Counted from the stretch's first letter, positions 469 to 43,576 are shown. The stretch: DNA of 43,576 nt from an uncultured Candidatus Saccharibacteria bacterium (GCA_964405805.1 CAYOPE010000004.1:1-43576); one strand, 5' to 3'. Numbers and translations are program-made. Notes: a model not told the origin generated them from the letters alone.

Positions 469-824
469 GTAAGCGAGGAACCTTACCAGGGTTTGACATG
501 TACCTTCAAGCGCACGGAAACGTGTGATCTTCGAGAGTGGTACACAGGTACTGCACGGTTGTCGTCAGCTCGTGTCGTGTTCACTGAAAACCCCTTTTCA
601 AAAAAGTGGTTTTCAGTACTTTCCGCAAAAAGGATGGCGAAGTAAATTCGCCAGCTCAAGGACGGAAAGCTAATTTCGCGACCTCATGGAGTAATCTGTG
701 AGAAAAATCCAACTATATCGGGGAAACCCTATACTTAGGGCAATCCCGAGGGAAGTCCACTGCTTAATTTGATTAAAAAAGGCCGCACCCGCAGGGGCAC
801 GGCCACAGACGTTCGACTCGATCG

Positions 825-956
825 CTACTCGGCGATGAGACGAGGCACTGGCAGCAGACGCAGCCAGAATCCACGTCTCCAGTCGAAGAAGATTCCGATT
901 TTGAACGGACGTTTGGTCGCGTACAGGTGTACGCCATCGAACATGTGTCTCACCAT
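825..956 (-). CDS. Antisense 43-aa basic/hydrophobic mini-ORF inside the 16S intron (MVRHMFDGVHLYATKRPFKIGIFFDWRRGFWLRLLPVPRLIAE)
   Basis: On the minus strand there is a -35 TTGATT (1010-1005), a 17-nt spacer and an extended -10 TGTTATCAT (-10 at 987-982). SD GAAGGAGGG lies 4 nt before the ATG (956). After the stop there is a GC hairpin (804-781) plus a T6 run (780-775). The segment looks GC-rich, like the other cassettes. Confidence 0.35.
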   Translation of the reverse strand: MVRHMFDGVHLYATKRPFKIGIFFDWRRGFWLRLLPVPRLIAE

Positions 957-1120
957 GATGCCCTCCTTCAATGAGCTCATCATGATAACACAAGCAATTA
1001 GAATAATCAAGATTAAGCATGACCCCCTAGAGACTACACGTTGGCTCCCGAGAAATCGGGATGAAGATATAGTCCGACCTGCTAGGTAACTAGCAGAGCA
1101 TAAAAGAAATTTTATGCCAC

Positions 1121-3629: not shown

Positions 3630-3643
3630 GTTTATTCGATTCG

Positions 3644-3652
3644 TGCTAGAAT
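3644..3652 (+). promoter_or_regulatory. Extended -10 promoter (TGCTAGAAT) of GC-rich cassette A
   Basis: TGnTAGAAT. It is followed by leader hairpin AAACCGC-GTAA-GCGGTTT (3669-3687) and SD AGGAGG. Confidence 0.5.
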
Positions 3653-3705
3653 AATTGAAACAAACATCAAACCGCGTAAGCGGTTTTCTTCGTAGGAGGA
3701 GAGCC

Positions 3706-4080
3706 ATGCTCGTGGCGCTTGTTATCGCAGGACTGTTTGTGGGCGCCGTCATCTACGGCAACTTGATGTACTCACGCGGGGCACGAGTCGAAGGACTCAG
3801 GCAGTCCATCGCGCTCCTCGCTTCCACCGTGGAGCTTTACAACGAAACTCTTCGTAGCTGGATTGCATACGCTGCAACCGAGCGAATTGAGGGCACACCT
3901 CTCCGGATCGAAATGCAGTGGAACGAGCAGATGGACTGGCTACGGAGCATGACTATCGTCATCAGAGATGGGTTCAAAGATCTCCGATACGAAGTCGTGC
4001 TCAAGGATCAGATTGCCAGGTCGCCTGGCGGCACGTTCACGATTGTCGGTGCTTTGGATTTCCAACCGAAATTCGACTAG
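3706..4080 (+). CDS. GC-rich cassette A: hypothetical membrane-anchored protein (124 aa)
   Basis: SD AGGAGG lies 5 nt before ATG 3706. N-terminal TM segment MLVALVIAGLFVGAVIYGNL. Composition looks GC-richer than the flanks. Confidence 0.65.
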   Translation: MLVALVIAGLFVGAVIYGNLMYSRGARVEGLRQSIALLASTVELYNETLRSWIAYAATERIEGTPLRIEMQWNEQMDWLRSMTIVIRDGFKDLRYEVVLKDQIARSPGGTFTIVGALDFQPKFD

Positions 4081-4089
4081 TGCAATCGG

Positions 4090-4136
4090 CAGGTCGTGGG
4101 GCATTCGCTGATGCTCCTGACCTGTCGTTTTTGTTT
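4090..4136 (+). terminator. Conserved cassette 3' hairpin, copy 1
   Basis: CAGGTCGTGGGGCA...CTCCTGACCTG plus TCGTTTTTGTTT. Related to copies at 5707 and 6261. Confidence 0.75.
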
Positions 4137-4137
4137 C

Positions 4138-4146
4138 TGATATAAT
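4138..4146 (+). promoter_or_regulatory. Extended -10 promoter (TGATATAAT) of uppP; leaderless geometry
   Basis: TATAAT is followed by 6 nt (CAATAC) and then ATG 4153. No SD is possible. Confidence 0.55.
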
Positions 4147-5274: not shown

Positions 5275-5346
5275 ATGTCTGAAAGACGCCATATTTTCAT
5301 AGCTAGTCCTGCAAATATGGTTTTCGCGTATCCCGCCGCCGCGTAG
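5275..5346 (+). CDS. Candidate leaderless 23-codon leader peptide (MSERRHIFIASPANMVFAYPAAA)
   Basis: Same -10 plus 6 nt plus ATG geometry as uppP and PAP2. Its TAG stop lies inside the hairpin at 5333-5350. Confidence 0.3.
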   Translation: MSERRHIFIASPANMVFAYPAAA

Positions 5347-5357
5347 GCGGTTTTTTT
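5333..5357 (+). terminator. Leader hairpin CCGCC-N8-GGCGG plus T7 between the promoter and the SD of cassette B (candidate attenuator)
   Basis: GC stem plus a T7 run, located 18 nt before ATG 5375 and immediately before SD AAGGAGGG. Confidence 0.5.
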
Positions 5358-5374
5358 GTCCCAAGGAGGGAAGG

Positions 5375-5695
5375 ATGCTGCTTCATCTTGACTTGGATGC
5401 GGAAGCAGATGAGAAGTCTGCAACTGCTTCGGATGTCGAGGCTGCGAACCTCGAAGCGTCAGCAAGACTACTAGCCAGCGTGCGTCGGATCTGCTCTCTC
5501 CATCCTCGTGAAGAGCAGGAACTCAGAAATACTGGAGAGTGCATCGTCCGGCACTTCAGCCCAGTCTATTCTGTGAGCGAGGGCGATGCCCTCATCGCTC
5601 AGACCGAAGGGTTGGATGAAATACCCGTGAAGGTAGTCGAGATCATCCAGATCAAAAACAGGCGGAACTTGCGCATACAACTAGTTCCGGTCTGA
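5375..5695 (+). CDS. GC-rich cassette B: hypothetical acidic protein (106 aa)
   Basis: SD AAGGAGGG. Followed by conserved hairpin copy 2. No family recognised. Confidence 0.55.
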   Translation: MLLHLDLDAEADEKSATASDVEAANLEASARLLASVRRICSLHPREEQELRNTGECIVRHFSPVYSVSEGDALIAQTEGLDEIPVKVVEIIQIKNRRNLRIQLVPV

Positions 5696-5706
5696 TTTGA
5701 TCGCGG

Positions 5707-5752
5707 CAGGTCGTGGGGCACTCAGAGCGCTCCCGACCTGTCGTTTTTGTTT
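5707..5752 (+). terminator. Conserved cassette 3' hairpin, copy 2
   Basis: CAGGTCGTGGGGCACTCAGAGCGCTCCCGACCTG plus TCGTTTTTGTTT. Confidence 0.8.
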
Positions 5753-5764
5753 GCCCAACTAGGA

Positions 5765-5793
5765 TTGACGAGCTTGGTTTTTTATGATAAAGT
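5765..5793 (+). promoter_or_regulatory. Sigma70-like promoter of cassette C (TTGACG-17-TAAAGT)
   Basis: The hexamers and the 17-nt spacer were read directly from the sequence. Confidence 0.45.
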
Positions 5794-5820
5794 TTTTAGT
5801 CATCCAAGGAGGAGACACGC

Positions 5821-6240
5821 ATGATCACGAGCACAGACACGATCGCCGAAATGAACGAGCTGTTTGTAGGCAGGAAGGTTCGGATCAGCCACGAAGGTAA
5901 TCCGCGTCTCGAGGATGGCGAGGGCATCTGCAAGCAGTTCCACGTCACCGAGTCCGGTGTCGACATCGAGCTGATAGACGGCCGTCGGTGGGGATTCGTT
6001 CCCGAAAATCTGACGCCTCTGTGGACCGAGGGCCCGGTCGGGGGCTTCATCGCAGGCCGGCGCAAGATCGAACTCGTCGATACGGGTAAGTCGAGAATCG
6101 AGGACCTCGAGGAAGCGACCAGAAGGCTTCACGGGCTCCTGACCGACCCGCATCCGGGCCTGAGCACGTGGCAGGAAGCCCTGCACCGCGCCGGTCAGGA
6201 GCTGTACGATCGGCTGAAGGCCTACGTGCCGAATCCGTAG
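5821..6240 (+). CDS. GC-rich cassette C: hypothetical protein (139 aa)
   Basis: SD AAGGAGGAG lies 7 nt upstream. Followed by conserved hairpin copy 3. The longer antisense ORF 5800-6414 lacks these signals. Confidence 0.6.
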   Translation: MITSTDTIAEMNELFVGRKVRISHEGNPRLEDGEGICKQFHVTESGVDIELIDGRRWGFVPENLTPLWTEGPVGGFIAGRRKIELVDTGKSRIEDLEEATRRLHGLLTDPHPGLSTWQEALHRAGQELYDRLKAYVPNP

Positions 6241-6260
6241 CCTGATTGCTCTAAAGATGA

Positions 6261-6306
6261 CAGGTCGTGGGGCACTCAGAGCGCTCCCGACCTGTCGTTT
6301 TGTTTT
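6261..6306 (+). terminator. Conserved cassette 3' hairpin, copy 3
   Basis: The 34-nt hairpin is identical to copy 2 (identity continues 8 nt into the T-tract). The T-tract reads TCGTTTTGTTTTG. Confidence 0.8.
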
Positions 6307-6345
6307 GACCGCCCATCCCGATTCGTGTATTGTTTTGTAGATCCC

Positions 6346-6386
6346 GGGCCGACTGCCTACGCGCAGTCGGCCCTTGTTGTTTTTTT
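6346..6386 (+). terminator. Second, unrelated strong hairpin plus T-run with no gene in front of it
   Basis: GGGCCGACTGC-CTACGC-GCAGTCGGCCC plus TTGTTGTTTTTTT, 40 nt after copy 3. Confidence 0.6.
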
Positions 6387-6462
6387 GAGGTAAAAATGAA
6401 TCAAGGGTTTCCACGCTTTCACGTATGGAAACCCTTTTGGTATCATGGTCGATGATGTCGAG

Positions 6463-6879
6463 CTAGGCTTTAGTTTTTTTCTTTTTGAGGACTTCAGGCA
6501 TTGGCAGCCGCTCGGGAATCGGAAACTCTGGCAGCGGCCTAATCAATGTGGCGATCCAGGCCACCCCTTCTTCTCCGCCCGTCTGATCGCGGTCCGGAGT
6601 GTGCTTGTATCCCTGATCAGTCAGCCATAGGAGAACCTGCTCGCCGACTTTTTTCGCTTCTGCGCTGAGGTTGTCGACAGTACTGCAGTACTCGCAGACG
6701 ATGGAGCGATCCGTGCGATCTTGATCTCCACGAACGCGGAGAGCGATGTCGACGTTGTTCCAGACCCGGAAGATCGAGACCTCGAGTAACTGTTCCCAGG
6801 TCCAGATGCCGGTTCGATATTTCTCTAAATCCCTGGTCCAGGCCTTTGCTTCCAGCTGGCGCTTCTTACTCAGGCCCAT
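6463..6879 (-). CDS. GC-rich cassette D: hypothetical protein (138 aa)
   Basis: Minus-strand SD AAGGAGGAA before the ATG, and an extended -10 TGATACTAT upstream. Hairpin 6403-6436 lies downstream. Confidence 0.6.
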   Translation of the reverse strand: MGLSKKRQLEAKAWTRDLEKYRTGIWTWEQLLEVSIFRVWNNVDIALRVRGDQDRTDRSIVCEYCSTVDNLSAEAKKVGEQVLLWLTDQGYKHTPDRDQTGGEEGVAWIATLIRPLPEFPIPERLPMPEVLKKKKTKA

Positions 6880-6974
6880 CGATTCCTCCTTATCCGAACA
6901 GCACGATAAAGCATAGTATCATTAAACATTAAAAAAATCAACCACTGGCAGACGTTTTTGTTTGCGTTTTATTG

Positions 6975-7655: not shown

Positions 7656-8260
7656 ACCCCTGGCTTGAAATTTTTATAATATTTATTTTGCCAATACTAC
7701 TTTGGTATTTTGGTCTCGTTTCTATAAAATATCGATTTAGAGTTTTTGTGTTAATGAATATCGCTACGGTAATGATTGTATGGAAAGAACACTGGAGCTT
7801 AAGACAGTTTGGACTTCGAATTGATAATTTTTATGCTTCCACCGTTCCGTATATTTTGTTTACAATTATAGGGTTTCTCTTTTTATTTTTTCTTGCCAAG
7901 CTGCACAAAAGAGACATAGTTGACGAGCGGAAGACGAGCAACCATTTTATTTATTGGTTTATCATTCTCAGTTTTTCCCAAGAATTTTTATACAGAGCTT
8001 TTTTGATGCCTCGATTATTGGGATTGTTTTCTCCTGTGCTGGCAATAATAGTTAATACTTTTCTGTTTGGTATTTTACATATTATTTATCCCGAGTTAAA
8101 AAAGAATTTATTTATAATAGTGTTGGCTGGATTTGCCTTCGCGACCGTGTATTACTATTATCCAAACTTGATTCTAATAAGCATTTCTCACTCGATTTTA
8201 AATTACGTCGCAGTCATGTATGGCTATTTCAGTTTTTATAAAATAAAACAAACAATATGA
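7652..8260 (+). CDS. CPBP (CAAX protease/Abi) intramembrane metalloprotease
   Basis: SQEFLYRAF (EExxxR-like), FGILH (FxxxH) and SHSILN (HxxxN) lie within a polytopic membrane protein. Confidence 0.8.
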   Translation: MNPWLEIFIIFILPILLWYFGLVSIKYRFRVFVLMNIATVMIVWKEHWSLRQFGLRIDNFYASTVPYILFTIIGFLFLFFLAKLHKRDIVDERKTSNHFIYWFIILSFSQEFLYRAFLMPRLLGLFSPVLAIIVNTFLFGILHIIYPELKKNLFIIVLAGFAFATVYYYYPNLILISISHSILNYVAVMYGYFSFYKIKQTI

Positions 8261-8385
8261 TTGCTAGTAAGCGCTGAAGTTTTTTGGTATACTTCTCGCA
8301 ACACAAACATTAAACCGCTGAACTCACCCTCTGTCCCGAGAAGTCGGGACATCTCTCCCGCAAACGGGAGAGAAAAAATAGAAAG

Positions 8386-8985
8386 ATGACAGAGGCGGCT
8401 TTCTTTGTAGGGGGAATGATGAACATGAAGAGAACTTCGAATCAGGATCACGCTCTGAACTTGATCCGCCGGATTTGCGCTCTGGAGACCTCGGCGCATG
8501 AAGACTCGATCGTGTTTCAGGTCAGGGACGTGGGCGCCGGAATGGGCAGTCCTGGGAACGCTGTGAAGCAAGGGGTTTTGGCGGCGCTGGTGGTCATGGG
8601 TTATATTCGGATCATTCAGAAGCCTCACTCCACGCTGAATATCTATGGCGCGACAAGAGAGTCTCTCCAACGTCTCGGGCAAGATATGCGGCTGTCGCAG
8701 TGGAATCAGCTCGGACTTCGTCCGTATACTTACATCGTGCACGCGCAGGTGCGGCTGTCAGAGAACGATTCGGTCCGCAAGTTCGCACGTGAGTGGAACT
8801 GCTGGACAGAAGTCCGATCAGCTGACCTGATTACGGTGAAAGTCGACGGCTTCGATACCTACTTCTTCGTGAACAGTCGGATGATCGGGGATGGTCCTCC
8901 GATTCATCTGTGCTGCGGTCTGCAGATCATCAAGCCGGATCTGATGGACCATTTCGACATCGACTGTCACTGGAAAGACGAGTAG
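8386..8985 (+). CDS. GC-rich cassette E: hypothetical protein, possible N-terminal winged-helix domain (start uncertain: 8386, 8416 or 8425)
   Basis: Extended -10 TGGTATACT (8285-8293). Two leader hairpins (8333-8350, 8353-8372). A hairpin plus T-run follows the stop. The antisense ORF 8236-8742 lacks such signals. Confidence 0.55.
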   Translation: MTEAAFFVGGMMNMKRTSNQDHALNLIRRICALETSAHEDSIVFQVRDVGAGMGSPGNAVKQGVLAALVVMGYIRIIQKPHSTLNIYGATRESLQRLGQDMRLSQWNQLGLRPYTYIVHAQVRLSENDSVRKFAREWNCWTEVRSADLITVKVDGFDTYFFVNSRMIGDGPPIHLCCGLQIIKPDLMDHFDIDCHWKDE

Positions 8986-9086
8986 ATCATCGACATATGG
9001 CTGCGCTGGTGAACCTTTTCGGGTTTGCCAGCGTTGTTTTTTGTTCAGAAATTTGCTATAATATATTTGTTTTGTAGATAAACCTG

Positions 9087-10475: not shown

Positions 10476-10907
10476 ATGCAAAATAAGAATCGAAAAGGTT
10501 TCACCCTCATCGAACTTTTGGTGGTCATAGCCATCATTGGTATTTTGGCAGCCGTGGTATTAGTATCCCTAAACTCAGCCCGCCAGAAGTCTAGAGATGC
10601 TAGAAGACTTGCTGATGTCAGACAAGTCATGACAGCATTAGAACTCTACTATAACGATAACAATGGTTATCCCACAGCCACCTCAGGAGCCCCAACCACT
10701 ACAGATGGTTCTCCTGCCTGGTCAACCTACCTAGCCACCTGGCCCACTGTCCCTACCCCTGCAGATGGCACCTGTGGCAATGCTAATGCCTACACCTATG
10801 CTCAAACCTCTTCTGGAGCTTCCTACACCCTAGCCTTCTGTCTAGGAGCAGTCACTGGAGGCTACACAGCTGGTAGTCATACAGCTTCTCCATCAGGGAT
10901 ACAGTAA
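10476..10907 (+). CDS. Type IV (major-type) pilin, stand-alone copy
   Basis: Prepilin signal MQNKNRKG|[18 protein letters not shown] with Glu at +5. Has its own promoter TGATATAAT (10427) and its own terminator. Confidence 0.9.
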   Translation: MQNKNRKGFTLIELLVVIAIIGILAAVVLVSLNSARQKSRDARRLADVRQVMTALELYYNDNNGYPTATSGAPTTTDGSPAWSTYLATWPTVPTPADGTCGNANAYTYAQTSSGASYTLAFCLGAVTGGYTAGSHTASPSGIQ

Positions 10908-11022: not shown

Positions 11023-11466
11023 ATGAAAAAACTAATCAAAAATAAGGGTTTTACCTTGATTGAATTACTGGTGGTCATCTCGATTATCGGTATTTTGGCT
11101 TCCACTGTGTTGGTATCTCTAAACGGCGCGCGCCAAAAAGCCAGAGATGCTCGCAGAATTGCAGACATTAGACAAATTCAGACAGCTCTTGAGCTTTTTT
11201 ATAACGATAATAATAAGTACCCACTGCCGACCTCTGCGTCTACAGGCGGGCCTACCTCCACTGATGGCAATCCTAACTGGTCAACTTATGTGGCTATTTG
11301 GCCAGCTGCCCCTCTTCCGCCAGATGGCACTTGTGGCAGTTCGAACACATATACTTACAACCAAGAACTCAATGGCAACAGCTATACTTTATCCTTCTGT
11401 TTAGGTGCAGTTACAGGGGGGTATGCTGCGGGTTTCCACGTTGCCAGCCCCAGCGGTATCCAATAA
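11023..11466 (+). CDS. Type IV pilin paralog
   Basis: MKKLIKNKG|[18 protein letters not shown]. Shares [21 protein letters not shown] and the C-terminal ASPSGIQ with the other pilins. Confidence 0.9.
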
Positions 11467-11546: not shown

Positions 11547-11624
11547 AGGGCGACTAGCTCAGGTGGTTAGAGCGCGTCACTGATAATGACGAGGTCGATG
11601 GTTCGAGTCCATCGTCGCCCACCA
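11547..11624 (+). tRNA. tRNA-Ile (anticodon GAU), CCA encoded
   Basis: The cloverleaf folds by hand: GGGCGAC/GTCGCCC acceptor stem, anticodon loop CTGATAA, T-loop TTCGAGT. Confidence 0.95.
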
Positions 11625-11630
11625 GAAATT

Positions 11631-11882
11631 ATGCATATTTTTAGCGGGCTAATTGGCGTAGCCGTAGGCTTCGTCTTAATTAAATACTCAGTGCCCTTGA
11701 CTGACATGTTTGGAAAAGTAGAATGGGCTGAAAGAAACTTGCGTGGGGGATTAGCCGGCACTTATTCACTATACAAAATAGTGGGAGTGATATTTATCAT
11801 CTTGTCGCTGCTCTATATGTTTGGCTTGATTGGCATAGTACTAGGACCTCTCAGTAACGTATTTGGCGGCGTTAAGCAATAA
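11631..11882 (+). CDS. 83-aa two-TM membrane protein that exactly fills the tRNA-Ile/tRNA-Ala spacer
   Basis: ATG 11631 lies 6 nt after the CCA of tRNA-Ile. The stop TAA (11880-11882) abuts G1 of tRNA-Ala (11883). Two clear hydrophobic helices. Confidence 0.6.
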   Translation: MHIFSGLIGVAVGFVLIKYSVPLTDMFGKVEWAERNLRGGLAGTYSLYKIVGVIFIILSLLYMFGLIGIVLGPLSNVFGGVKQ

Positions 11883-11956
11883 GGGCCTTTAGCATAATGG
11901 TAGTGCGCTCGGTTTGCATCCGAGATGTGGGAGTTCGATTCTCCCAAGGTCCACCA
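11883..11956 (+). tRNA. tRNA-Ala (anticodon UGC), CCA encoded
   Basis: GGGCCTT/AAGGTCC acceptor stem with the G3:U70 alanine identity pair. Anticodon loop TTTGCAT, T-loop TTCGATT. Confidence 0.95.
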
Positions 11957-19181: not shown

Positions 19182-19610
19182 ATGAAAAGAAAAAATTTTG
19201 GTTTCACCCTCATCGAACTTTTGGTGGTCATAGCCATCATTGGTATTTTGGCAGCCGTGGTATTAGTATCCCTAAACTCAGCCCGCCAGAAGTCTAGAGA
19301 TGCTAGAAGACTTGCTGATGTCAGACAAGTCATGACAGCATTAGAACTCTACTATAACGATAACAATGGTTATCCCACAGCCACCTCAGGAGCCCCAACC
19401 ACTACAGATGGTTCTCCTGCCTGGTCAACCTACCTAGCCACCTGGCCCACTGTCCCTACCCCTGCAGATGGCACCTGTGGCAATGCTAATGCCTACACCT
19501 ATGCTCAAACCTCTTCTGGAGCTTCCTACACCCTAGCCTTCTGTCTAGGAGCAGTCACTGGAGGCTACACAGCTGGTAGTCATACAGCTTCTCCATCAGG
19601 GATACAGTAA
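19182..19610 (+). CDS. Type IV pilin, operon copy (mature part identical to 10476-10907)
   Basis: SD-like GGGGGTG before ATG 19182. Signal MKRKNFG|FTLIEL. Confidence 0.9.
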
Positions 19611-26346: not shown

Positions 26347-26408
26347 TTTAGTGTTCGTTTCATTTTAAGTTAATTTCCTTTTTTAGATTATACTACATGC
26401 TTCAACTA

Positions 26409-26437
26409 TTGACAAATTGGCTTAAAAGGAGTACAAT
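26409..26437 (+). promoter_or_regulatory. Sigma70 promoter TTGACA-17-TACAAT of cassette F
   Basis: Hexamers read directly. Shares the 13-mer AACTATTGACAAA with the promoter at 30681. Confidence 0.6.
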
Positions 26438-26502
26438 TATACGCTACAGTAAAGGCAAGTACCGGGCAATCACGCCCAAAAAAATCGATGGAGGACACGC
26501 AG

Positions 26503-27558
26503 ATGCGCACGCATGAAATCGTGGCTAGTTTCGCATGCGTTGTCCTCTCGGGCAGCGCTTGCGGCGGCTCGTCCACACCGACCCCGCCGACGCAGCAGCC
26601 CACTCTGAGTATTCGTTCCTCAAACCAGCTGTACTTCGCTGGCGAGAGCTATCGGCTGAACGCGATGTTCCAGCAACCTGGACAAACTGCCCAGGACGTC
26701 ACCGTCCAAGCGACGTGGTCATCATCAGACCCGTCGGTGGCCACAGTCAACGCTGGCATAGTGAATGTCCTGGTGGACGGCAAGACCGCGGACATCACTG
26801 TCAAGTACCAAGACGTCACGTCGAAGGTGACTGTCTCGACCGGCTGGTTTCTGATCAAGGCCGACCCAGGAGTGTCTGCTACTGATCAAGACATCGTCCG
26901 TGATGGGGCAAACGTGGCGATTGACTACTACGCCTCAAAGTTGGGCTGGGTTCCTGAAAAGCAGATTACGATCACGCTGACGACAGCAAGTGGTAGTACT
27001 ACGGCCACTTCTGCTCCTTCAGCGCTGACCGTCTTCGTTACTGGTTCGGAGTGGCTGGTAACTGCAGCTGAGCTCAAGCGGAAGATCATAGGACATGAGC
27101 TCTTTCACGTGTTGCAGTACACCATCGCCTGGCTTGGCAATCACACGATACTTGACGACTGGCTCGTGGAGGGCAGCGCTGAGTACATGGGCTACCGAGC
27201 TGAAGTGATTGATCGCGGGATACAGGGAGCAGATCAGACCCGCGGTTGCCATCAGTTCTCGGTGGACAATTCGTCGACCCTGGTCACGCTGCCGTTGTCG
27301 AAGCTGGAAAACCAAGGCGACTTCCAGGCTGCTGCACACGCGAGCCCAGCCTATAGCCTGGCGTACCTCGCGGCTGAGCGAGCAGCCCAAGACAGAGGTC
27401 TTGGCTCGTTTATCGACTACGGTCGGTCGGCTGCCACGGCATCGCTCGCTGTCTCGTTTCAGAATGGGTTCGGCAAGCCGCTGAGCCAGTTCTACGACGA
27501 GTTCGAGACTTACCGGCGAACATGGGTTCATTCGCCGAACTATACCTGCCTGCACTGA
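26503..27558 (+). CDS. GC-rich cassette F: exported Ig-like (Big_2-type) plus HExxH zinc metalloprotease
   Basis: SD GGAGGA. Lipoprotein-like signal VVLSGSAC. Ig-like segment SSDPSVATVNAGIVNVLVDGKTADITVKY. Zinc site IIGHELFHVLQ plus EGSAEY. Confidence 0.75.
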   Translation: MRTHEIVASFACVVLSGSACGGSSTPTPPTQQPTLSIRSSNQLYFAGESYRLNAMFQQPGQTAQDVTVQATWSSSDPSVATVNAGIVNVLVDGKTADITVKYQDVTSKVTVSTGWFLIKADPGVSATDQDIVRDGANVAIDYYASKLGWVPEKQITITLTTASGSTTATSAPSALTVFVTGSEWLVTAAELKRKIIGHELFHVLQYTIAWLGNHTILDDWLVEGSAEYMGYRAEVIDRGIQGADQTRGCHQFSVDNSSTLVTLPLSKLENQGDFQAAAHASPAYSLAYLAAERAAQDRGLGSFIDYGRSAATASLAVSFQNGFGKPLSQFYDEFETYRRTWVHSPNYTCLH

Positions 27559-27582
27559 GAGGTAGGGTCTGCACGTTTCTCT

Positions 27583-27625
27583 GGGCGCGATGACTGGGAT
27601 TCCCGTCGTCGCGCTCTTTGTTTTT
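27583..27625 (+). terminator. 12-bp stem hairpin plus TTTGTTTTT
   Basis: GGGCGCGATGAC...GTCGTCGCGCTC. Confidence 0.7.
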
Positions 27626-29386: not shown

Positions 29387-30672
29387 AAAGCCTTCTTTTG
29401 ATCTTACTAGTGATAACCTTCTGTATATTTTTGCCAGGTATAAACAAGCTCCATGCTGATTACTGTGGTGAACACTTGACTTGTGGGCACAACCTTGATA
29501 TTGATTATTGTGTTGATAATGGACCAACCTGGTGTCCTGGCGGTTGCGTGCCTGCCGGCTCAGTGAGCTGTGATGCCTATGGCCAGTCAGAATTTTGTGG
29601 AGATATTTTTAACTGCAGCAATTATAATATTGAATACTTTTATGAATATGAATACCAATATCCCTATCAATACGAGTATCAGTATGAATACCAGTACCAG
29701 TATCAATACCCTTACCAATATCAGTACCAGTACCCGTATCAATATGAATACCAATACCCAACCCCATATTCTTATCAGTACCAGTATGAATACCAGTATC
29801 AGTACCAATATCAGTATCAGTACCAGACCCCGTATTCTTACCAGTATCAATACCAATACCAATACCAGTATCAGTATCAGTACCAGACCCCAATTATTCC
29901 ACCAACTGCTCCTACACTTAATGCAGTAGACAACACCACTTGCGCTCAGCTTCACCTGACGTGGGTAGATAATTCTTCAAATGAAGACGGCTTTACAGTT
30001 TGGCGCTCCACGACTTCTGGTTCAGGTTTCAGCAATATTTCTGGTAATCTTCCGGCCAATACTACGACTTATACAGACACACCCCCTTCCACTGGTGTTA
30101 CGTATTTTTATATCGTTAAAGCGTTTATAAATTATCCTCCGTTGTCAGAGTCTTCTTCCAACGAGCAGAGTGCCATGAACCTAGCTTGTAGCGCTTCTAT
30201 GGCAAATACCAATATCGTCGCGCTGAAAGTTAACGGTGTTAATTTTACAACCACCACCACTGTGAAGAATGGTGACACCGTCACCTACCAAATCACCCTA
30301 GTCAACTCAGGTCCTTCCAATGCTACCATCAACTACATCTGTGACTTCCCATCATCAAACCTGACAAACTTAAGAAACCTCACTGTCTCAGGCCCTGGTT
30401 CTAGCAATGGGGGAATCACAGCTAACTCACCAACCTGTAACAATTCCTACAAATTCAATGTCTCCGGCAACAAGAATCTAGCCAACAACTGGGTTATTAC
30501 CTTTGATGGTACTGTCTCAACTGCTATCACAGACATCCAGGAAGTCATGAAAGACAGCATCAGAATCAACTTCTCTGATCCTACCAACAAAGACTGGTCT
30601 GGCTCTGCCCCGAACATCCTTATTAACTCTACCAAAGGCAAGACCCCCAACTTCAGAGAGGTCAGTCCATGA
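29383..30672 (+). CDS. Exported adhesin-like protein 1: signal peptide, 10-Cys knot, (Y-x)n tract, FN3, DUF11-like beta-sandwich
   Basis: About 84 residues have Tyr at every second position. FN3 signature LTWVDNSSNEDGFTVWRS...YFYIVKAF. GDTVTYQITLVNSGPSNAT is typical of DUF11-type repeats. Confidence 0.85.
   Translation: MKSLLLILLVITFCIFLPGINKLHADYCGEHLTCGHNLDIDYCVDNGPTWCPGGCVPAGSVSCDAYGQSEFCGDIFNCSNYNIEYFYEYEYQYPYQYEYQYEYQYQYQYPYQYQYQYPYQYEYQYPTPYSYQYQYEYQYQYQYQYQYQTPYSYQYQYQYQYQYQYQYQTPIIPPTAPTLNAVDNTTCAQLHLTWVDNSSNEDGFTVWRSTTSGSGFSNISGNLPANTTTYTDTPPSTGVTYFYIVKAFINYPPLSESSSNEQSAMNLACSASMANTNIVALKVNGVNFTTTTTVKNGDTVTYQITLVNSGPSNATINYICDFPSSNLTNLRNLTVSGPGSSNGGITANSPTCNNSYKFNVSGNKNLANNWVITFDGTVSTAITDIQEVMKDSIRINFSDPTNKDWSGSAPNILINSTKGKTPNFREVSP
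29623..29874 (+). repeat. Degenerate hexanucleotide (TAY-CAR/GAR/CCN) tandem array encoding (YQ/YE/YP)n
   Basis: Codon usage varies between units (TAT/TAC, CAA/CAG), so the repeat is conserved at the protein level rather than being a simple slippage array. Confidence 0.9.
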
Positions 30673-30673: not shown

Positions 30674-30680
30674 GTAACTA

Positions 30681-30709
30681 TTGACAAAAATTCTTTTTTG
30701 AAGTAAAAT
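30681..30709 (+). promoter_or_regulatory. Sigma70 promoter TTGACA-17-TAAAAT of cassette G
   Basis: Read directly. Inverted repeat ATTCCTA...TAGGAAT (30708-30734) overlaps the -10 and +1 positions. Confidence 0.6.
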
Positions 30710-30758
30710 TCCTAGTTACAATGTAGTTAGGAATTTTGGCTTTTCAAGGAGGAATGCC

Positions 30759-31478
30759 ATGAAGTACATCGCGACGATCGCAGTTGCGTTGTTTCTGGCT
30801 ACCTCCGCGGTGGCCAAAGACAAAGCGCCGACGTATAGTGAAGACGAAATCGCCAAGTACGAAGCAGCGGTTGATGTTGCGGCGATTCGGATTTCACAGG
30901 GAACGGATACTCTGGCAGCGGCGAAGCGAGCCGACGTAGAGGCTGTTGCCGAGAAGTATCGACGCGGTTTCCACCTCGTCGAAGAGACCAACCCGCTTTA
31001 CCGACTGGTCTCAGAGCAGTATGGAAAGCTCGCCGGTTCTCGTCGAGTGCGACTGCATTTGTTTCGCGGTCCGAGCTTGCCTGGAGTCGCGATCGGGGAT
31101 GACGTCTATCTCCACTACGACTCCATACACAAGCTGGCGACCTTCGCTGGCGGTCCGAACCTGATTTTGGCAACTCTGGCTCATGAACTGGGCCATGGGT
31201 CTGCTGACTTTACGCGACTGCTCGTCATTGACGGGCTTGCTCTACCAGCGGACCTGAAAGAAAGTCTGCGGCTGCGACTCGAGATGCGAGCTGACGAGGA
31301 AGCAGCGCGGCTGATGCAGGTATCGAACTTGTCGACTGACGGACTGACACAGAACCTTCGGGCTCTGGACTCAGGCACTGACAACGACGAGGACGGCCGG
31401 CTCAAGCAGCGCATTGCAAACCTCGAGATGTTTGCCAAGATGCCGCGCGTCGCTTCTGGCACACAATACCAACGCTAG
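30759..31478 (+). CDS. GC-rich cassette G: secreted HExxH zinc metalloprotease (M48-like)
   Basis: SD AAGGAGG. Signal peptide MKYIATIAVALFLATSAVA. Zinc site LAHELGHG with downstream EMRADEEA. Confidence 0.75.
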   Translation: MKYIATIAVALFLATSAVAKDKAPTYSEDEIAKYEAAVDVAAIRISQGTDTLAAAKRADVEAVAEKYRRGFHLVEETNPLYRLVSEQYGKLAGSRRVRLHLFRGPSLPGVAIGDDVYLHYDSIHKLATFAGGPNLILATLAHELGHGSADFTRLLVIDGLALPADLKESLRLRLEMRADEEAARLMQVSNLSTDGLTQNLRALDSGTDNDEDGRLKQRIANLEMFAKMPRVASGTQYQR

Positions 31479-31498
31479 CGCACTGGCGTTGGTTCCGA

Positions 31499-31557
31499 GA
31501 CCCGAGAGACTGACAGCTCATTACTGTCTTCACTCGGGTCTTCGCTTTGTCTTTTTT
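31499..31557 (+). terminator. Long hairpin plus T-run
   Basis: GACCCGAG..GACAG-loop-CTGTC..CTCGGGTC followed by TTCGCTTTGTCTTTTTT. Confidence 0.7.
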
Positions 31558-32151: not shown

Positions 32152-33385
32152 ACAAAAGATAAAAATAATTATATTTTTTCTGCTTACCTTAAGCCTCGGT
32201 TTGATTTTAGGTTTAGCCCAAAATAGCAATGCCCAGAGTTGTGCCGGCGGCACTGGTGGTGGCTGTGGTGGCTCTGATGCAGGCTCTTGTATCGGTTCAC
32301 CGCTGTCATGCATTGGCGCTGCTTGCCATGTGGAGTCCCAGCCTGTTAGTTGTTCTGGTAATGGTGATACTTGGCAGTGCCCAAACGATGTCTGCGTGTT
32401 TGATTATGAATATCCTTACCCATACCAGTATCCGTATCCTTATCAGTACGAGTATGAGTATCAATATCCTTATCCCTATCAATACGAGTACCAATACCAA
32501 TACCAGTATCAGTACCAATATCCGTACCAATACGAATACCAATATCAAACCCCGTACTCTTATCAGTATCAGTACCAATACCAATACCAGTATCAGTACG
32601 AGTATGAAACGCCACCTCCACCGCCGCCAAATGCTCCAACGCTGAATAGTGTCGGAAACGCTACTTGTGCCCAGCTGAACCTGAGTTGGACTGACAATTC
32701 GTCAGATGAAAAAGGTTTTACTGTTTGGCGCTCCACTACTTCTGGTTCTGGTTTTAGCCAGATTAATTCAGTCGGTCCAAACATCACAACTTTCGTGGAC
32801 ACGCCTCCGAGTGTGGACACGTCGTATTTCTATGTGGTCAAAGCGTTTAATGATTTTGGTGAAAGCGCTTCAAACGAACAAAGTGCACTTAATCGGAAGT
32901 GTGAAGCCTCCATGGCCAACACCAGAGTTAGATTGATTAAAGTTAATGGTGTGAATTTCTCATCAGTGGATACTATTAAAAATTCCGACACCGTCACCTA
33001 CCAAATCACCCTAGTCAACTCAGGTCCTTCCAATGCTACCATCAACTACATCTGTGACTTCCCATCATCAAACCTGACAAACTTAAGAAACCTCACTGTC
33101 TCAGGCCCTGGTTCTAGCAATGGGGGAATCACAGCTAACTCACCAACCTGTAACAATTCCTACAAATTCAATGTCTCCGGCAACAAGAATCTAGCCAACA
33201 ACTGGGTTATTACCTTTGATGGTACTGTCTCAACTGCTATCACAGACATCCAGGAAGTCATGAAAGACAGCATCAGAATCAACTTCTCTGATCCTACCAA
33301 CAAAGACTGGTCTGGCTCTGCCCCGAACATCCTTATTAACTCTACCAAAGGCAAGACCCCCAACTTCAGAGAGGTCAGTCCATGA
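32144..33385 (+). CDS. Exported adhesin-like protein 2 (GTG start), same architecture as 29383-30672
   Basis: Signal peptide, 10 Cys, a (Y-x)n tract of about 65 residues, poly-Pro, FN3, and a C-terminal domain that is nucleotide-identical to paralog 1. Confidence 0.85.
   Translation: MTRQKIKIIIFFLLTLSLGLILGLAQNSNAQSCAGGTGGGCGGSDAGSCIGSPLSCIGAACHVESQPVSCSGNGDTWQCPNDVCVFDYEYPYPYQYPYPYQYEYEYQYPYPYQYEYQYQYQYQYQYPYQYEYQYQTPYSYQYQYQYQYQYQYEYETPPPPPPNAPTLNSVGNATCAQLNLSWTDNSSDEKGFTVWRSTTSGSGFSQINSVGPNITTFVDTPPSVDTSYFYVVKAFNDFGESASNEQSALNRKCEASMANTRVRLIKVNGVNFSSVDTIKNSDTVTYQITLVNSGPSNATINYICDFPSSNLTNLRNLTVSGPGSSNGGITANSPTCNNSYKFNVSGNKNLANNWVITFDGTVSTAITDIQEVMKDSIRINFSDPTNKDWSGSAPNILINSTKGKTPNFREVSP
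32405..32599 (+). repeat. Hexanucleotide array encoding (YP/YQ/YE)n
   Basis: Same type of array as 29623-29874. Confidence 0.9.
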
Positions 33386-39181: not shown

Positions 39182-39264
39182 TTTGTAATTTAGAATCTTT
39201 CGTGTTACCATGCCTATAATTTGAGCGAATTAATCGCTCACTTGAGTCTCCGAAGGAGGAACTC

Positions 39265-40002
39265 ATGAAGGTTCAGGCAGTTGGCAGTTTCGCAGATCCA
39301 ATCGACCTGATTCGATCGCAGGACCAGAAATGGCAGCGTATGCGTGAAGCCATGGATTGGCTAACGAAGAGCCGATCGGTCCTCGAAGGTGGTCACTTCA
39401 GGTTTGGCACAGACGAGAAAGAACAACACGGACGTATCTACGTAAACGCCCGTCGGTTGTTCAACATGGCATTCGCGAGCAAGTGGTTGATTACGGCGTT
39501 GGCGGATGTCCTACCCACGGAGGTCCGTGAGCAAACGGAGATCGTAGCCGGTCCGACCACATGCGGCATCATCATCGCGCGTGATCTGGCGGATCACCTG
39601 TCGTCGAAACTCAAAGAAGGCCAACCGGATGTCGAAGCCATCTTTTTCGGTCGCGATTGGAACGACATCTATACAATTCACGAGTCCGATGCCGACCGAT
39701 TGCTTGTGTGGGAACCTGTTGATCCAAACAAGCCTGATGGAGAGCAGAAAGTCGTGCGTGGTCGCCGCGTTCTTTTAGTCGATGACGTTCGACACCGTGG
39801 GGTGACGTTTGAAGCTTGCTTCCAGCTGATCAAACGGGCTGGAGGCGAAGTCATCGCCACCGCTCAGCTCATCGATCGCGGCATGGCTACACTGCCGATT
39901 CCAGTCCCGAACTACTTCGTCGGCCAGGTCGATCGTGATCGGTTGTACAAACCGAAGGACTGCCCGATGTGTCGAGTCGGTGAGCCCATCACGAAGTTCT
40001 GA
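39265..40002 (+). CDS. GC-rich island: type I phosphoribosyltransferase (OPRT-like)
   Basis: SD GAAGGAGG. PRPP loop RVLLVDDVRHRGVTF. EGGHFRFG near the N-terminus. C-terminal CPMCRVGEP. Confidence 0.75.
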   Translation: MKVQAVGSFADPIDLIRSQDQKWQRMREAMDWLTKSRSVLEGGHFRFGTDEKEQHGRIYVNARRLFNMAFASKWLITALADVLPTEVREQTEIVAGPTTCGIIIARDLADHLSSKLKEGQPDVEAIFFGRDWNDIYTIHESDADRLLVWEPVDPNKPDGEQKVVRGRRVLLVDDVRHRGVTFEACFQLIKRAGGEVIATAQLIDRGMATLPIPVPNYFVGQVDRDRLYKPKDCPMCRVGEPITKF

Positions 40003-40012
40003 AGGAGGGCGT

Positions 40013-40237
40013 ATGAGTCTGCTGTTGCTTTTCGTCTTCCTCGTGGTGCTTGGCGTGATCTTTGTGTGCAGCGTGTTCTTTCCGATCCGTCTACTGCTTC
40101 TGCTATGTGCAATCTGGACGATCGTGCTTCTGATCATGGCCACCACCTTTACCACCGTCATCATCGGAGTCGCGCCTCTGATCGCTGTTCTGGTGGGTCA
40201 CGCGGTCGGTCAGATCCGGGTTAACACGAGCTTCTGA
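40013..40237 (+). CDS. GC-rich island: 74-aa two/three-TM membrane protein
   Basis: SD GAAGGAGGG 4 nt (CGT A) before ATG 40013. Almost entirely hydrophobic. Confidence 0.55.
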   Translation: MSLLLLFVFLVVLGVIFVCSVFFPIRLLLLLCAIWTIVLLIMATTFTTVIIGVAPLIAVLVGHAVGQIRVNTSF

Positions 40238-40247
40238 GGAGAGCGTC

Positions 40248-40433
40248 ATGGACATTAAACTTCATTGGTGCAACTTCGCACTCGCGCTCTGGGCGTGCAC
40301 GCCGAGAGGTGGCGAGTGGCTCCGGAAAAGATTCGGAACCACGAACGTCACGGTCCACTGCTCGTATGAGCCGATCATGCGAGAGCTGGCTCAGACTGGT
40401 CTGGCCATCGGCGGCGACGTCCCTGTGGTGTAG
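40248..40433 (+). CDS. GC-rich island: 61-aa hypothetical protein
   Basis: SD GAGGAGAG. A terminator follows the stop. Confidence 0.5.
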   Translation: MDIKLHWCNFALALWACTPRGGEWLRKRFGTTNVTVHCSYEPIMRELAQTGLAIGGDVPVV

Positions 40434-40443
40434 TTCTCAGCCC

Positions 40444-40493
40444 GCCTGCCTCGAACTTCGCTTTACTGCGGATCGAGGCGGGCGTGTTTTTTT
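40444..40493 (+). terminator. Long hairpin terminator, sibling of 41658-41708
   Basis: GCCTGCCTCGA...TCGAGGCGGGC plus GTGTTTTTTT. Confidence 0.75.
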
Positions 40494-40553
40494 AACCCAA
40501 GCTCTTCTTCGGCTTGTATTTGACTTTAAGCGAAACTATTCATTAAACTAATA

Positions 40554-40570
40554 TGTTGGTTCAACCAACA
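40554..40570. promoter_or_regulatory. Perfect 8-1-8 palindrome TGTTGGTT-C-AACCAACA abutting the SD of the triple-HTH gene (candidate operator)
   Basis: Read directly. It ends 1 nt before GGAGGA. Confidence 0.45.
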
Positions 40571-40581
40571 GGAGGATCGAG

Positions 40582-41169
40582 ATGGGCACACACCCCGCTC
40601 ATTATCTGTTCAGCTTGCTGGCTAAAAGAATGAGACTGAGCTTGGCGCCTTTCTATTTGTGGGAGAAAAAAGGCCTTCTTCCTGTCCACGTCGTGAACGG
40701 AGATAAGGTCGTGAAGGCCTCGATTGCGCGGCCGCTTATCCAGGTATGGCGCACGACATGTACTCGAGCAGAGTTTGCGAGACTGACAGGCTGGAACAAA
40801 AATTCGATCGGTTATCTCATAAATCGCAGATTGATCCACGCAAGAAAGGTTCACGGTCGTTGGCGTCCTTGTCGCAGCTCTATACCTGTCGCACGCCGCC
40901 TGGCTAGTCAGCACATGCGACAAGTCAAACGGATGAGTCAAGGAAACTTCTTCGTTCAGTTGGCGGGTAGACCGCAGGAGCTCCAAGGCCAGACGCAGAA
41001 TTTGTCAGTGACGGCTCAGTACCTCGGAGTAGGCACTAGCATGGTTCATGTCTGGATTTCTGAAGGAAAGCTTAAAGTGACTTACTACAGAGGGCGTCTC
41101 GTGGTGTTTACAAGTTCGATCAAAAGTCTTCGTAAGAGATTTTTGGTTGAATTTAAGAACGACTACTAA
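40582..41169 (+). CDS. GC-rich island: protein with three excisionase/MerR-type (HTH_17-like) units
   Basis: Unit 3, LSVTAQYLGVGTSMVHVWISEGKLKVTYYRGRLVVF, is a textbook Xis/AlpA-type HTH. Two weaker units lie upstream. Confidence 0.65.
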   Translation: MGTHPAHYLFSLLAKRMRLSLAPFYLWEKKGLLPVHVVNGDKVVKASIARPLIQVWRTTCTRAEFARLTGWNKNSIGYLINRRLIHARKVHGRWRPCRSSIPVARRLASQHMRQVKRMSQGNFFVQLAGRPQELQGQTQNLSVTAQYLGVGTSMVHVWISEGKLKVTYYRGRLVVFTSSIKSLRKRFLVEFKNDY

Positions 41170-41178
41170 GGGGGCGTT

Positions 41179-41649
41179 GTGGCAAATACCAAGCCGGGCG
41201 GCACGCTCGGCAAAATGTCCGCCAAGAAGAGGCGACAGGTTCAGTCCAAAGGTGGGCAGGCGTCGCATGAAAAAGGAGTGGCTCCCGAATTCAGCGCGGG
41301 TCGTCAAGGCTCTGGCCGCAAGGCAGCACTCAGGAGCTGGGAGCTGTGCCCGAAGCGTGATCTACCACCACTATCAAGCGACCGGGCGCGCGAGCTTGCT
41401 TTCAGTCGCTGGAAGGAAGCGTATCAGCACCTGCTTTTGCCCGTGACGACACCTCAGCTACTCATACCAATCGCCGAGTGCGCGCAGTTGCTGCGGGTGA
41501 ACAAGATTACTTTCAGGCGATGGCGGAGGCTCGGACTGTTTCGCGGGGAAGTGACCAAGGGGCAAAAGAAATACTTGCCCTACGAACGACTGGAGATGGG
41601 GCGAAGAGCCGTGGTCCGTTTTTACAAGATCAAACCGGCTTCGGTCTAG
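41179..41649 (+). CDS. GC-rich island: KGG-motif N-terminus plus HTH_17-like C-terminus (GTG start)
   Basis: SD AAGGGGG. SKGGQASHEKG resembles the stress-protein KGG repeat. IPIAECAQLLRVNKITFRRWRRLGLF is HTH-like. Confidence 0.55.
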   Translation: MANTKPGGTLGKMSAKKRRQVQSKGGQASHEKGVAPEFSAGRQGSGRKAALRSWELCPKRDLPPLSSDRARELAFSRWKEAYQHLLLPVTTPQLLIPIAECAQLLRVNKITFRRWRRLGLFRGEVTKGQKKYLPYERLEMGRRAVVRFYKIKPASV

Positions 41650-41657
41650 TCGGTCTG

Positions 41658-41708
41658 CCTCGCCTTGACCTTCGCTATAAAGCGAGTCGAGGCGGGGCGT
41701 GATTTTTT
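41658..41708 (+). terminator. Long hairpin terminator, sibling of 40444-40493
   Basis: CCTCGCCTTGAC-CTTCGCT-ATAA-AGCGAG-GTCGAGGCGGGG plus CGTGATTTTTT. Confidence 0.75.

Positions 41709-42285: not shown

Positions 42286-43576
<1,291 letters not shown>

Follow-up and report, generated by a model that had tools for sequence, protein, structure and literature searches.

The 16S ribosomal RNA (rRNA) gene that opens a 43,576-nucleotide (nt) stretch of DNA from an uncultured Candidatus Saccharibacteria bacterium (GCA_964405805.1, CAYOPE010000004.1:1-43576; referred to as the window, with positions counted from its first letter) is interrupted by a group I intron, which in turn carries a 262-nt insert (758-1019) in the terminal loop of its paired region P6. 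Judged from sequence, this insert is on balance probably a genuine, autonomous and insulated mini-gene that resembles a phage moron and lies antisense in a permissive intron loop. That the cassette is also expressed and useful at present would be a less confident statement than that it is an autonomous gene unit. The strongest new evidence for the cassette design is its recurrence in two further rRNA introns, at the metagenome loci L124 and L047.

An initial annotation of the window had proposed a complete antisense expression cassette within the 16S intron, and promoter, Shine-Dalgarno (SD) sequence, a 43-codon open reading frame (ORF) and terminator were all recovered on the minus strand between positions 1010 and 775. 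A promoter scan identified the −35 hexamer TTGATT (1010-1005) and, after a 17-nt spacer, an extended −10 element TGnTATCAT (990-982), in which TG stands ahead of the second hexamer; together the two hexamers agree with the consensus at 9 of 12 positions. From the position of this promoter, transcription would be expected to start at approximately 975. The SD sequence GAAGGAGGG (969-961), read directly from the DNA, ends 4 nt upstream of the ATG (956-954) of an ORF (956-828) that encodes the peptide MVRHMFDGVHLYATKRPFKIGIFFDWRRGFWLRLLPVPRLIAE and is closed by a TAG stop codon (827-825). At a distance of 20 nt from this TAG, a terminator scan located the terminator-like hairpin GGCCGTGCCCCTGCGGGTGCGGCC (804-781; eight G-C pairs among 10) with T6 (780-775) behind it. 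On the minus strand all positions of this stem are paired, two of them as G·U, and these turn into two C·A mismatches on the plus strand. Within 500-1400, terminator-like sites occur on the minus strand only.

The insert is bounded by terminal inverted repeats of 14-15 nt with one indel, namely the left arm GCTTAATTTGATTA (761-775) and the right arm TAATCAAGATTAAGC (1004-1018), the latter containing the −35 hexamer of the antisense promoter. In the predicted folds of the insert and of the whole intron these arms form a 15-bp stem that separates the insert from the ribozyme core, and in the sense RNA the insert folds as a separate, closed multi-hairpin domain. A further predicted stem (985-979/960-954) would bury the AUG in read-through RNA, while the putative transcription start site bisects this stem. 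A miniature inverted-repeat transposable element or another small non-autonomous transposon was considered on account of the inverted repeats and rejected for want of target-site duplications and multiple copies. No target-site duplication was seen by eye at 757/758 or 1019/1020, the 43.6-kb window holds no second copy of the inverted-repeat arms or of the terminator hairpin, and no other copy of the insert was found in the window (one contig of the genome), in 142 loci or among the proteins called from public contigs.

The host of the cassette is well defined. The 16S rRNA gene (RF00177) occupies 1-1676 on the plus strand, the window opening inside the gene, and the intron spans 579-1239 (661 nt, plus strand) within it. 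The match to the group I intron family RF00028 (52.2 bits over 665-1096) exceeds the gathering threshold of 50, which establishes membership. The 5' exon ends with U578 and the last intron base is G1239; the ligated exons read GUGUCGU followed by GAGAUGUU, and the site is flanked by the conserved 16S blocks GTCGTCAGCTCGTG and AACGAGCGCAACCC. The core helices were assigned by hand from the sequence, with support from a fold of the whole intron, which reproduces them (z-score, z = −11.2), and from the orthologous intron at metagenome locus L031. All on the plus strand, the internal guide sequence (IGS) GCGAC (678-682) pairs with the exon segment GUCGU (574-578), placing a U·G pair (U578·G678) at the splice site, and is followed by P3 (709-713/1040-1044), P4 (718-723/745-749), P5 (727-731/736-740), P7 (1031-1036/1070-1075), P8 (1046-1051/1056-1061) and P9 (1079-1085/1090-1096). 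The base of P6 is formed by GGG AA GUC (750-757) and its partner GAC CCC[C] (1021-1027). Hence, 579-1239 is a group I intron with conserved P3-P9 core, U·G splice-site pair and terminal G, and it is predicted to self-splice. The cmscan alignment to RF00028 places the extra sequence in P8. However, the P6 flanks GGGAAGUC...UGACCCC are identical in L031 and in approximately 100 related introns, and because these flanks are common to so many relatives, the insert is assigned to the P6 terminal loop rather than to P8. A search of both strands of 540-1280 against Rfam, with E-values up to 1, returned only the host intron together with sub-threshold matches to P11 and MIR7807, which were disregarded as they score far under their gathering scores; the insert itself matches no Rfam family on either strand. 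In blastn searches, phages gave only a 34-nt match, in K1E-like phages, to the conserved J8/7-P7-P9 core of the intron, and plasmids gave none.

Two peripheral elements of the intron are unusual in their own right. The P9 extension (1100-1232) is a long, near-perfect hairpin of approximately 130 nt with a guanine plus cytosine (GC) content of 20-23%; it resembles simple AT-rich repeats, yet is 92% conserved in L031. Between the 5' splice site and the IGS, approximately 100 nt with two hairpins (579-677) constitute an unusually large P1 loop extension that is conserved in L031 and absent from L124.

Comparison with relatives identifies the insert as a presence/absence difference. Scanning metagenome contigs with a lineage-specific P7-P3' pattern returned 120 loci, among them L031, which stems from another metagenome and contains an orthologous intron at the same 16S site that is 83-92% identical to that of the window, including the 20%-GC P9 arm; the 16S exons are 85-93% identical. 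Between GGGAAGUC and UGACCCC, L031 has only a 12-nt hairpin (GUCC-GCAA-GGAC), with flanks 83-97% identical. The initial annotation had raised the question of intron homologues without the insert, and L031 is such a homologue. Since 12 nt stand there in place of 262 nt, the segment represents a discrete insertion or deletion difference. L031 itself contains approximately 110 extra nt in P8 (1750-1875, minus strand) that showed no gene-like signals when the sequence was read, and its 16S gene has two further large insertions at other sites. The peripheral loops of the host intron turn over quickly.

Across the intron family, approximately 105 P6 segments were measured. They range from 14 to approximately 3000 nt in length and fall mainly into two size classes, 14-59 nt in approximately 45 loci and 600-650 nt in approximately 50, with few intermediates. 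The larger class holds a sense-strand LAGLIDADG ORF of 190-214 amino acids (aa), a pattern that matches the rRNA insertions of the Candidate Phyla Radiation (CPR) reported by Tsurumaki et al. 2024 (PMC11270868). Owing to these size classes and LAGLIDADG ORFs, P6 is the standard cargo site of the host intron family. Apart from the cassettes described here, P6 arms of intermediate length consist of AT-rich hairpins or, in the P6 loops of L058 and L121, of endonuclease genes in decay, and are devoid of cassette signals.

The same design was encountered twice more. L124, a metagenome contig of 2.3 kb, contains a related intron (72-80% identity over the aligned segments) that occupies the same position in the 16S gene, and its P6 loop holds an antisense cassette on the minus strand (249-576). 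It consists of a promoter with 10 of 12 matches (TTGACA-17-TGnGATCAT), the SD sequence TAAGGAGG, an ATG followed by a 90-codon ORF and TAA, and a terminator (GGCGCGTCGCTAGGCGCGCC, an 8-bp GC hairpin followed by a T-run), and is closed by a 20-bp inverted repeat stem. The insert has a GC content of 43% and encodes an acidic, soluble 90-aa protein, an ORFan without Pfam match and with a best PDB match of E = 0.024. The second case, L047, is identical to L082 and L142 and was hence recovered from three metagenomes. Its host is a different group I intron, located in a 23S gene, and the cassette (11153-11379, minus strand) again lies antisense in the P6 loop, with a promoter of 10 of 12 matches (TTGACT-17-TGnTATATT), the SD sequence AAGGAGG, a terminator composed of a 14-bp hairpin and T-run, and a 21-bp closing stem. 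Its 41-aa cargo has a hydrophobic span of approximately 23 residues (best 19-residue Kyte-Doolittle mean 2.07) and in composition would fit a type I toxin-like peptide. This intron additionally keeps a sense LAGLIDADG gene beyond P9 (11510-12175). Beyond the signals, the cassettes of the window, L124 and L047 share no sequence. A relaxed scan of 933 kb yielded eight unique small complete cassettes, three of which are antisense in intron P6 loops; the P6 loops that hold these three account for only approximately 3 kb of the 933 kb. It therefore looks as though small genes are repeatedly carried in rRNA introns in this form, as antisense mini-genes in P6.

Chance and assembly artefacts were addressed separately. 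Among 20,000 dinucleotide shuffles of 745-1032, an SD sequence with ATG and an ORF of at least 30 codons arose in 1.1%; SD and ORF were joined by a promoter in a single shuffle and by a terminator in none, and all three signals never occurred together. Applied to 889 kb of real related loci, the same detector reported four cassettes that were complete and had an ORF of 30-60 codons. Over 454-1349, and hence across both insert junctions, the window agrees at 100% with L143, a Logan assembly made independently from the same reads, and the insert is therefore not a misassembly.

The insert had also been described as GC-rich and unlike the rest of the intron. With 50% GC in the insert and 55% in the ORF, this is correct relative to the AT-rich P9 arm, but the insert barely exceeds the intron core (45-48%) and does not exceed the 16S exons (49-57%). 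What distinguishes it are the codon-position GC pattern and the GGAGG SD, both common to the GC-rich genes of the window. When the ORFs of the window are divided into 10 with a GC content of at least 0.50 and 36 with less than 0.50, GGAGG occurs within 21 nt upstream of the start in 8 of the former and in none of the latter. The mini-ORF (GC 0.55, with GGAGG) falls into the GC-rich class, and its GC content at the three codon positions (0.57/0.39/0.66) is that of the GC-rich genes. In a codon log-odds model trained on these genes, the frame defined by the SD sequence scores +10.1 bits, compared with −15 and −10 bits for the other minus-strand frames and 0, −1 and −19 bits for the plus-strand frames, while windows from real genes average 6.8 ± 4.9 bits in leave-one-out tests. 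Among windows free of stop codons, 1.7% of those taken off-frame attain 10.1 bits or more, as do 0.5% of those drawn from 19 kb of rRNA and intron sequence. The 57 codons that precede the ATG in the same frame score −6.7, consistent with 956 being the start. The proposal that the mini-ORF belongs with the GC-rich, strong-SD genes of the window is thus borne out by both SD type and codon use, two independent features that point to a coding function.

Less can be said about the product. The 43-aa peptide is basic (pI 11.4) and aromatic, with five F, two W and one Y. The suggestion that it is type I toxin-like or membrane-active did not survive: its best 19-residue Kyte-Doolittle mean is 0.54, D and R residues are distributed throughout, and neither a hydrophobic span nor a transmembrane helix was found. 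No family in Pfam, NCBIfam, PHROGs or PADLOC, and hence no toxin family, matches it. A word-indexed search of 5.8 billion protein clusters gave no homologue and HMMER searches of 1.84 billion representatives nothing credible; the two HMMER matches (P0001 and P0002), a BTB/BACK protein and a repeat protein, were taken as eukaryotic and set aside in view of missing BLASTP support. Pattern scans for the peptide in genome and metagenome contigs as well as blastn, tblastx and tblastn comparisons of insert and peptide with 142 loci were also negative. A match in a viral contig (L002, 47% over 32 aa) was rejected as a chance match because it lies antisense within an 856-aa tail-fibre-like ORF. An AlphaFold2 single-sequence model shows short strands at an uninformative predicted local distance difference test value (pLDDT 66).

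A plausible scenario for the origin and operation of the cassette can be outlined. A discrete piece of DNA would have been inserted into the P6 terminal loop of a 16S group I intron that carries no endonuclease gene. It would constitute an autonomous unit facing away from the rRNA, with a sigma-70-type promoter and extended −10 element, GGAGG SD, ORF and intrinsic terminator. In the sense pre-rRNA, as folding suggests, the inverted repeat would zip the insert into a side arm, with P6 and the core still able to form. RNA polymerase may start near 975 and produce an RNA of approximately 200 nt with accessible SD sequence, and antisense transcription would stop at 775-780, before the ribozyme core and the 16S exon are reached. 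The sense transcript would read the terminator as an A-run followed by a hairpin, which should be harmless to rRNA synthesis. The antisense orientation presumably survives because a terminator in sense orientation would cut rRNA synthesis. The ORF could then be translated into the basic, aromatic 43-aa peptide, while head-on rRNA transcription and the fully complementary intron RNA may hold its expression low as long as rRNA synthesis is high. Conceivably, insulated antisense P6 cassettes form an entire small-gene cargo class in CPR rRNA introns, with expression tied inversely to rRNA synthesis by head-on interference and by pairing with the excised intron, and with peptides that serve as reporters or effectors of growth arrest; this extension is speculative and appears doubtful.

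Several observations weigh against a functional mini-gene at 758-1019. Since two more frames run across the insert for 86-88 codons without a stop, 43 stop-free codons are not significant alone. Both strands of the insert are strongly structured (plus strand, z = −6.7; minus strand, z = −5.8), and the asymmetry of G·U pairs picks no strand (4 vs 8); the comparison of G·U with C·A is mixed, with the terminator hairpin favouring the minus and the 914-939 hairpin the plus strand. The mRNA would be fully complementary to the most abundant precursor RNA of the cell and transcribed head-on, and may hardly accumulate. The source annotation, moreover, chose a different ORF over the insert, calling a 116-aa ORF (670-1020, minus strand) that spans ribozyme core and insert. 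This ORF, which recovered only itself when used as a query (a singleton), has a negative codon score (−8.5 bits) and no SD sequence; for these reasons the call is almost certainly a spurious one that conceals the 43-codon ORF. Finally, the peptide has no homologue in any resource searched. This is weak counter-evidence, as the 139-aa product of a GC-rich neighbour (5821-6240) is likewise an ORFan.

Among the alternatives, the one that survives best, though rather unlikely, is that the cassette is real and its cargo dead, i.e. that a small transcription unit became trapped in the P6 loop, perhaps when an endonuclease gene was repaired or lost there, persists only because this loop accepts whatever a stem closes off, and is now silent or encodes a functionless peptide. 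The orphan nature of the peptide and the lack of a second copy or variant of the insert in the searches are compatible with such a history, as are the wide length tolerance of P6 (14 to approximately 3000 nt) and the persistence there of the decayed endonuclease genes of L058 and L121. Yet none of the five signals is damaged, and the ORF retains its start codon, its stop codon and its codon bias. Intact cassettes built in the same way also occur in two other introns; one of these (L124) has a 90-codon ORF in a 43%-GC insert, and it is estimated, not computed, that chance alone would be unlikely to keep this ORF open. The uniformly antisense orientation and the insulation by terminators also look selected.

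It appears distinctly improbable that there is no gene at all and that 758-1019 is a structured peripheral RNA arm, a P6 extension whose opposite-strand signals are coincidental by-products of a GC-rich sequence full of hairpins between AT-rich stems. Such an arm would account for the plus-strand structure (z = −6.7), the closed multi-hairpin domain, a GC content equal to that of the rRNA exons, the location of −35 hexamer and T-run in or beside the AT-rich closing stem, the two other open frames and the missing homologues. It is hard to reconcile with the absence of the full signal set from 20,000 shuffles and with a codon bias that is confined to the SD-defined frame and reached by only 0.5% of rRNA and intron windows. 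The orthologous intron of L031 does without the segment, which matches no Rfam family on either strand, and three non-homologous inserts have the same antisense layout, which other intermediate P6 arms lack.

Still less probable is a growth-rate-coupled module with the logic of a type I toxin-antitoxin system, in which the abundant, perfectly complementary intron or pre-rRNA and head-on transcriptional interference neutralise the mRNA, and the peptide appears only once rRNA synthesis breaks down. Full complementarity and head-on transcription follow necessarily from the geometry, and the hydrophobic 41-aa cargo of L047 (2.07) is toxin-like. However, the peptide of the window has no membrane span (0.54), the L124 cargo is acidic and soluble, leaving no common toxin type, and no match to toxin or defence families was obtained. 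Since "toxin" and "antitoxin" would reside on the same DNA, the loss of one entails the loss of the other, and addiction logic does not apply. That the insert is the degenerate remnant of a homing-endonuclease gene, as the LAGLIDADG genes housed in P6 of the host intron family might suggest, can be given very little credence, considering that those genes are on the sense strand, that tblastn of 54 LAGLIDADG ORFs against the host intron gave nothing better than E = 0.07 in any frame, that Pfam searches of the insert in four frames were negative and that LAGLIDADG, GIY-YIG, HNH and His-Cys motifs or domains were not found in it.

The genomic context of the intron shows a number of further features. 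In a genome of roughly 32-46% GC, the window contains islands of 50-63% GC at 3640-4140, 5330-6930, 8250-9050, 26400-27600, 30750-31500 and 39250-41700. GGAGG is the SD sequence of most of their genes, several of which come with promoter-like sites and terminator hairpins of their own, and 7 of 10 are without Pfam match; for the 139-aa product encoded at 5821-6240, no homologue exists among 5.8 billion clusters. Two distinct gene classes are thus present on the contig, and the GC islands look like moron-like or foreign ORFan cassettes. A hairpin of approximately 50 nt followed by a T-run (CAGGTCGTGGGGCACTCAGAGCGCTCCCGACCTGTCGTTTTTGTTT) occurs in three copies that are 85-96% identical (4087-4136, 5704-5756 and 6258-6310), each following a GC-rich cassette gene. 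This repeat may serve as a terminator module common to these genes or as a site of recombination; by eye, it bears no resemblance to an integron attC core. A promoter block (AACTATTGACA, 17-nt spacer, TACAAT or TAAAAT) is repeated at 26404-26438 and 30676-30710 upstream of two GC-rich genes and, being of consensus type, indicates that canonical sigma-70 promoters are in use in the genome. The rRNA genes are unlinked, with the 16S (1-1676) and 23S (42286-43576) genes on the same strand 40 kb apart and approximately 45 protein genes in between, while tRNA-Ile and tRNA-Ala (11548-11956) are located approximately 10 kb downstream of the 16S gene. In the 5' part of the 23S gene, 1054 model positions are matched in 1291 nt, and this part may also hold an insertion. 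Two long direct repeats lie inside ORFs, one a 300-nt pair of 100% identity and the other 98% identical, and two paralogous genes contain arrays of 6-, 12- and 18-nt periodic repeats; the segments concerned are 10497-10796 and 19200-19499, 30259-30558 and 32972-33271, and 29589-29922 and 32389-32638.

Group I introns are thought to carry essentially one passenger, homing endonucleases, which in bacteria are encoded on the sense strand. If the inserts of the window, L124 and L047 are indeed three independent antisense mini-genes, each with promoter, strong SD sequence and terminator, the P6 loop would be a general landing pad for small accessory genes, with orientation filtered such that rRNA synthesis is not terminated, and rRNA introns could spread cargo that is unrelated to their own mobility. 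The promoter of the window cassette would fire head-on against the gene that is presumably transcribed most heavily in a minimal cell, an arrangement well suited to the study of transcriptional interference and antisense control. Approximately half of the CPR 16S genes carry insertions (PMC11270868), and the cassette offers a searchable signature for small proteins that standard annotation misses.

Among the closest known counterparts of this arrangement are the LAGLIDADG genes of CPR rRNA introns, which share intron family, host genes and P6 loop and are likewise coding inserts looped out of the ribozyme. In contrast to these sense-oriented, recognisable endonuclease genes of 190-214 aa that fill the loop, the cassette of the window encodes 43 aa, runs antisense, is equipped with a promoter and a terminator of its own and lacks endonuclease motifs; antisense genes are not mentioned in that work (PMC11270868). 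They are documented from eukaryotic nuclear rDNA, where His-Cys-box homing-endonuclease genes lie antisense in group I introns at position L2066 (PMC9548176). As in the window, a protein gene opposite to the rRNA strand needs its own expression signals there. However, those eukaryotic genes are of RNA polymerase II type, contain spliceosomal introns and encode a mobility enzyme, whereas the cassette combines a bacterial host and sigma-70, SD and intrinsic-terminator signals with a non-endonuclease cargo. The claim that an antisense mini-gene inside an rRNA intron is undescribed was therefore too broad in view of the eukaryotic endonuclease genes (PMC9548176). In the open-access literature, neither a bacterial precedent nor one with a non-endonuclease cargo was found, and no bacterial rRNA intron was encountered with an antisense non-endonuclease mini-gene that has its own sigma-70 promoter and terminator.

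Other systems share individual traits. Type I toxin-antitoxin loci likewise combine a small ORF, a strong SD sequence and a fully complementary RNA from the other strand, but the window peptide has neither a hydrophobic helix nor a family match, and the complementary RNA is the intron instead of a dedicated small RNA. In the endonuclease genes of the T4 td, nrdB and sunY introns, internal promoters are present, and a hairpin hides SD sequence and AUG in read-through RNA and not in internally started RNA. The predicted stem 985-979/960-954 would act alike on an intron-borne ORF with internal promoter, although the T4 genes are sense-oriented and encode endonucleases. ORF-bearing intervening sequences of 23S genes, such as the Coxiella IVS with S23p (PMC4990558), are selfish, stem-closed rRNA-gene inserts with an ORF of doubtful expression; they reside in an rRNA helix and are excised by RNase III without ligation, whereas the insert of the window is nested in an intron predicted to self-splice.

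The closest analogue in working principle is the phage moron, a concept of Juhala and Hendrix that is used here as defined in PMC2920897. Like a moron, the cassette is a small accessory gene lodged in a permissive site of a mobile element; consensus scans give it a promoter and a terminator of its own, and its composition and signals are unlike its surroundings. It is present or absent between relatives and occupies a hotspot that receives different cargos, as seen in L031, L124 and L047. Unlike a moron, which sits between prophage genes, it lies outside a phage context, antisense in a ribozyme loop and closed by an inverted repeat. The comparison is thus one of working principle and not of membership.

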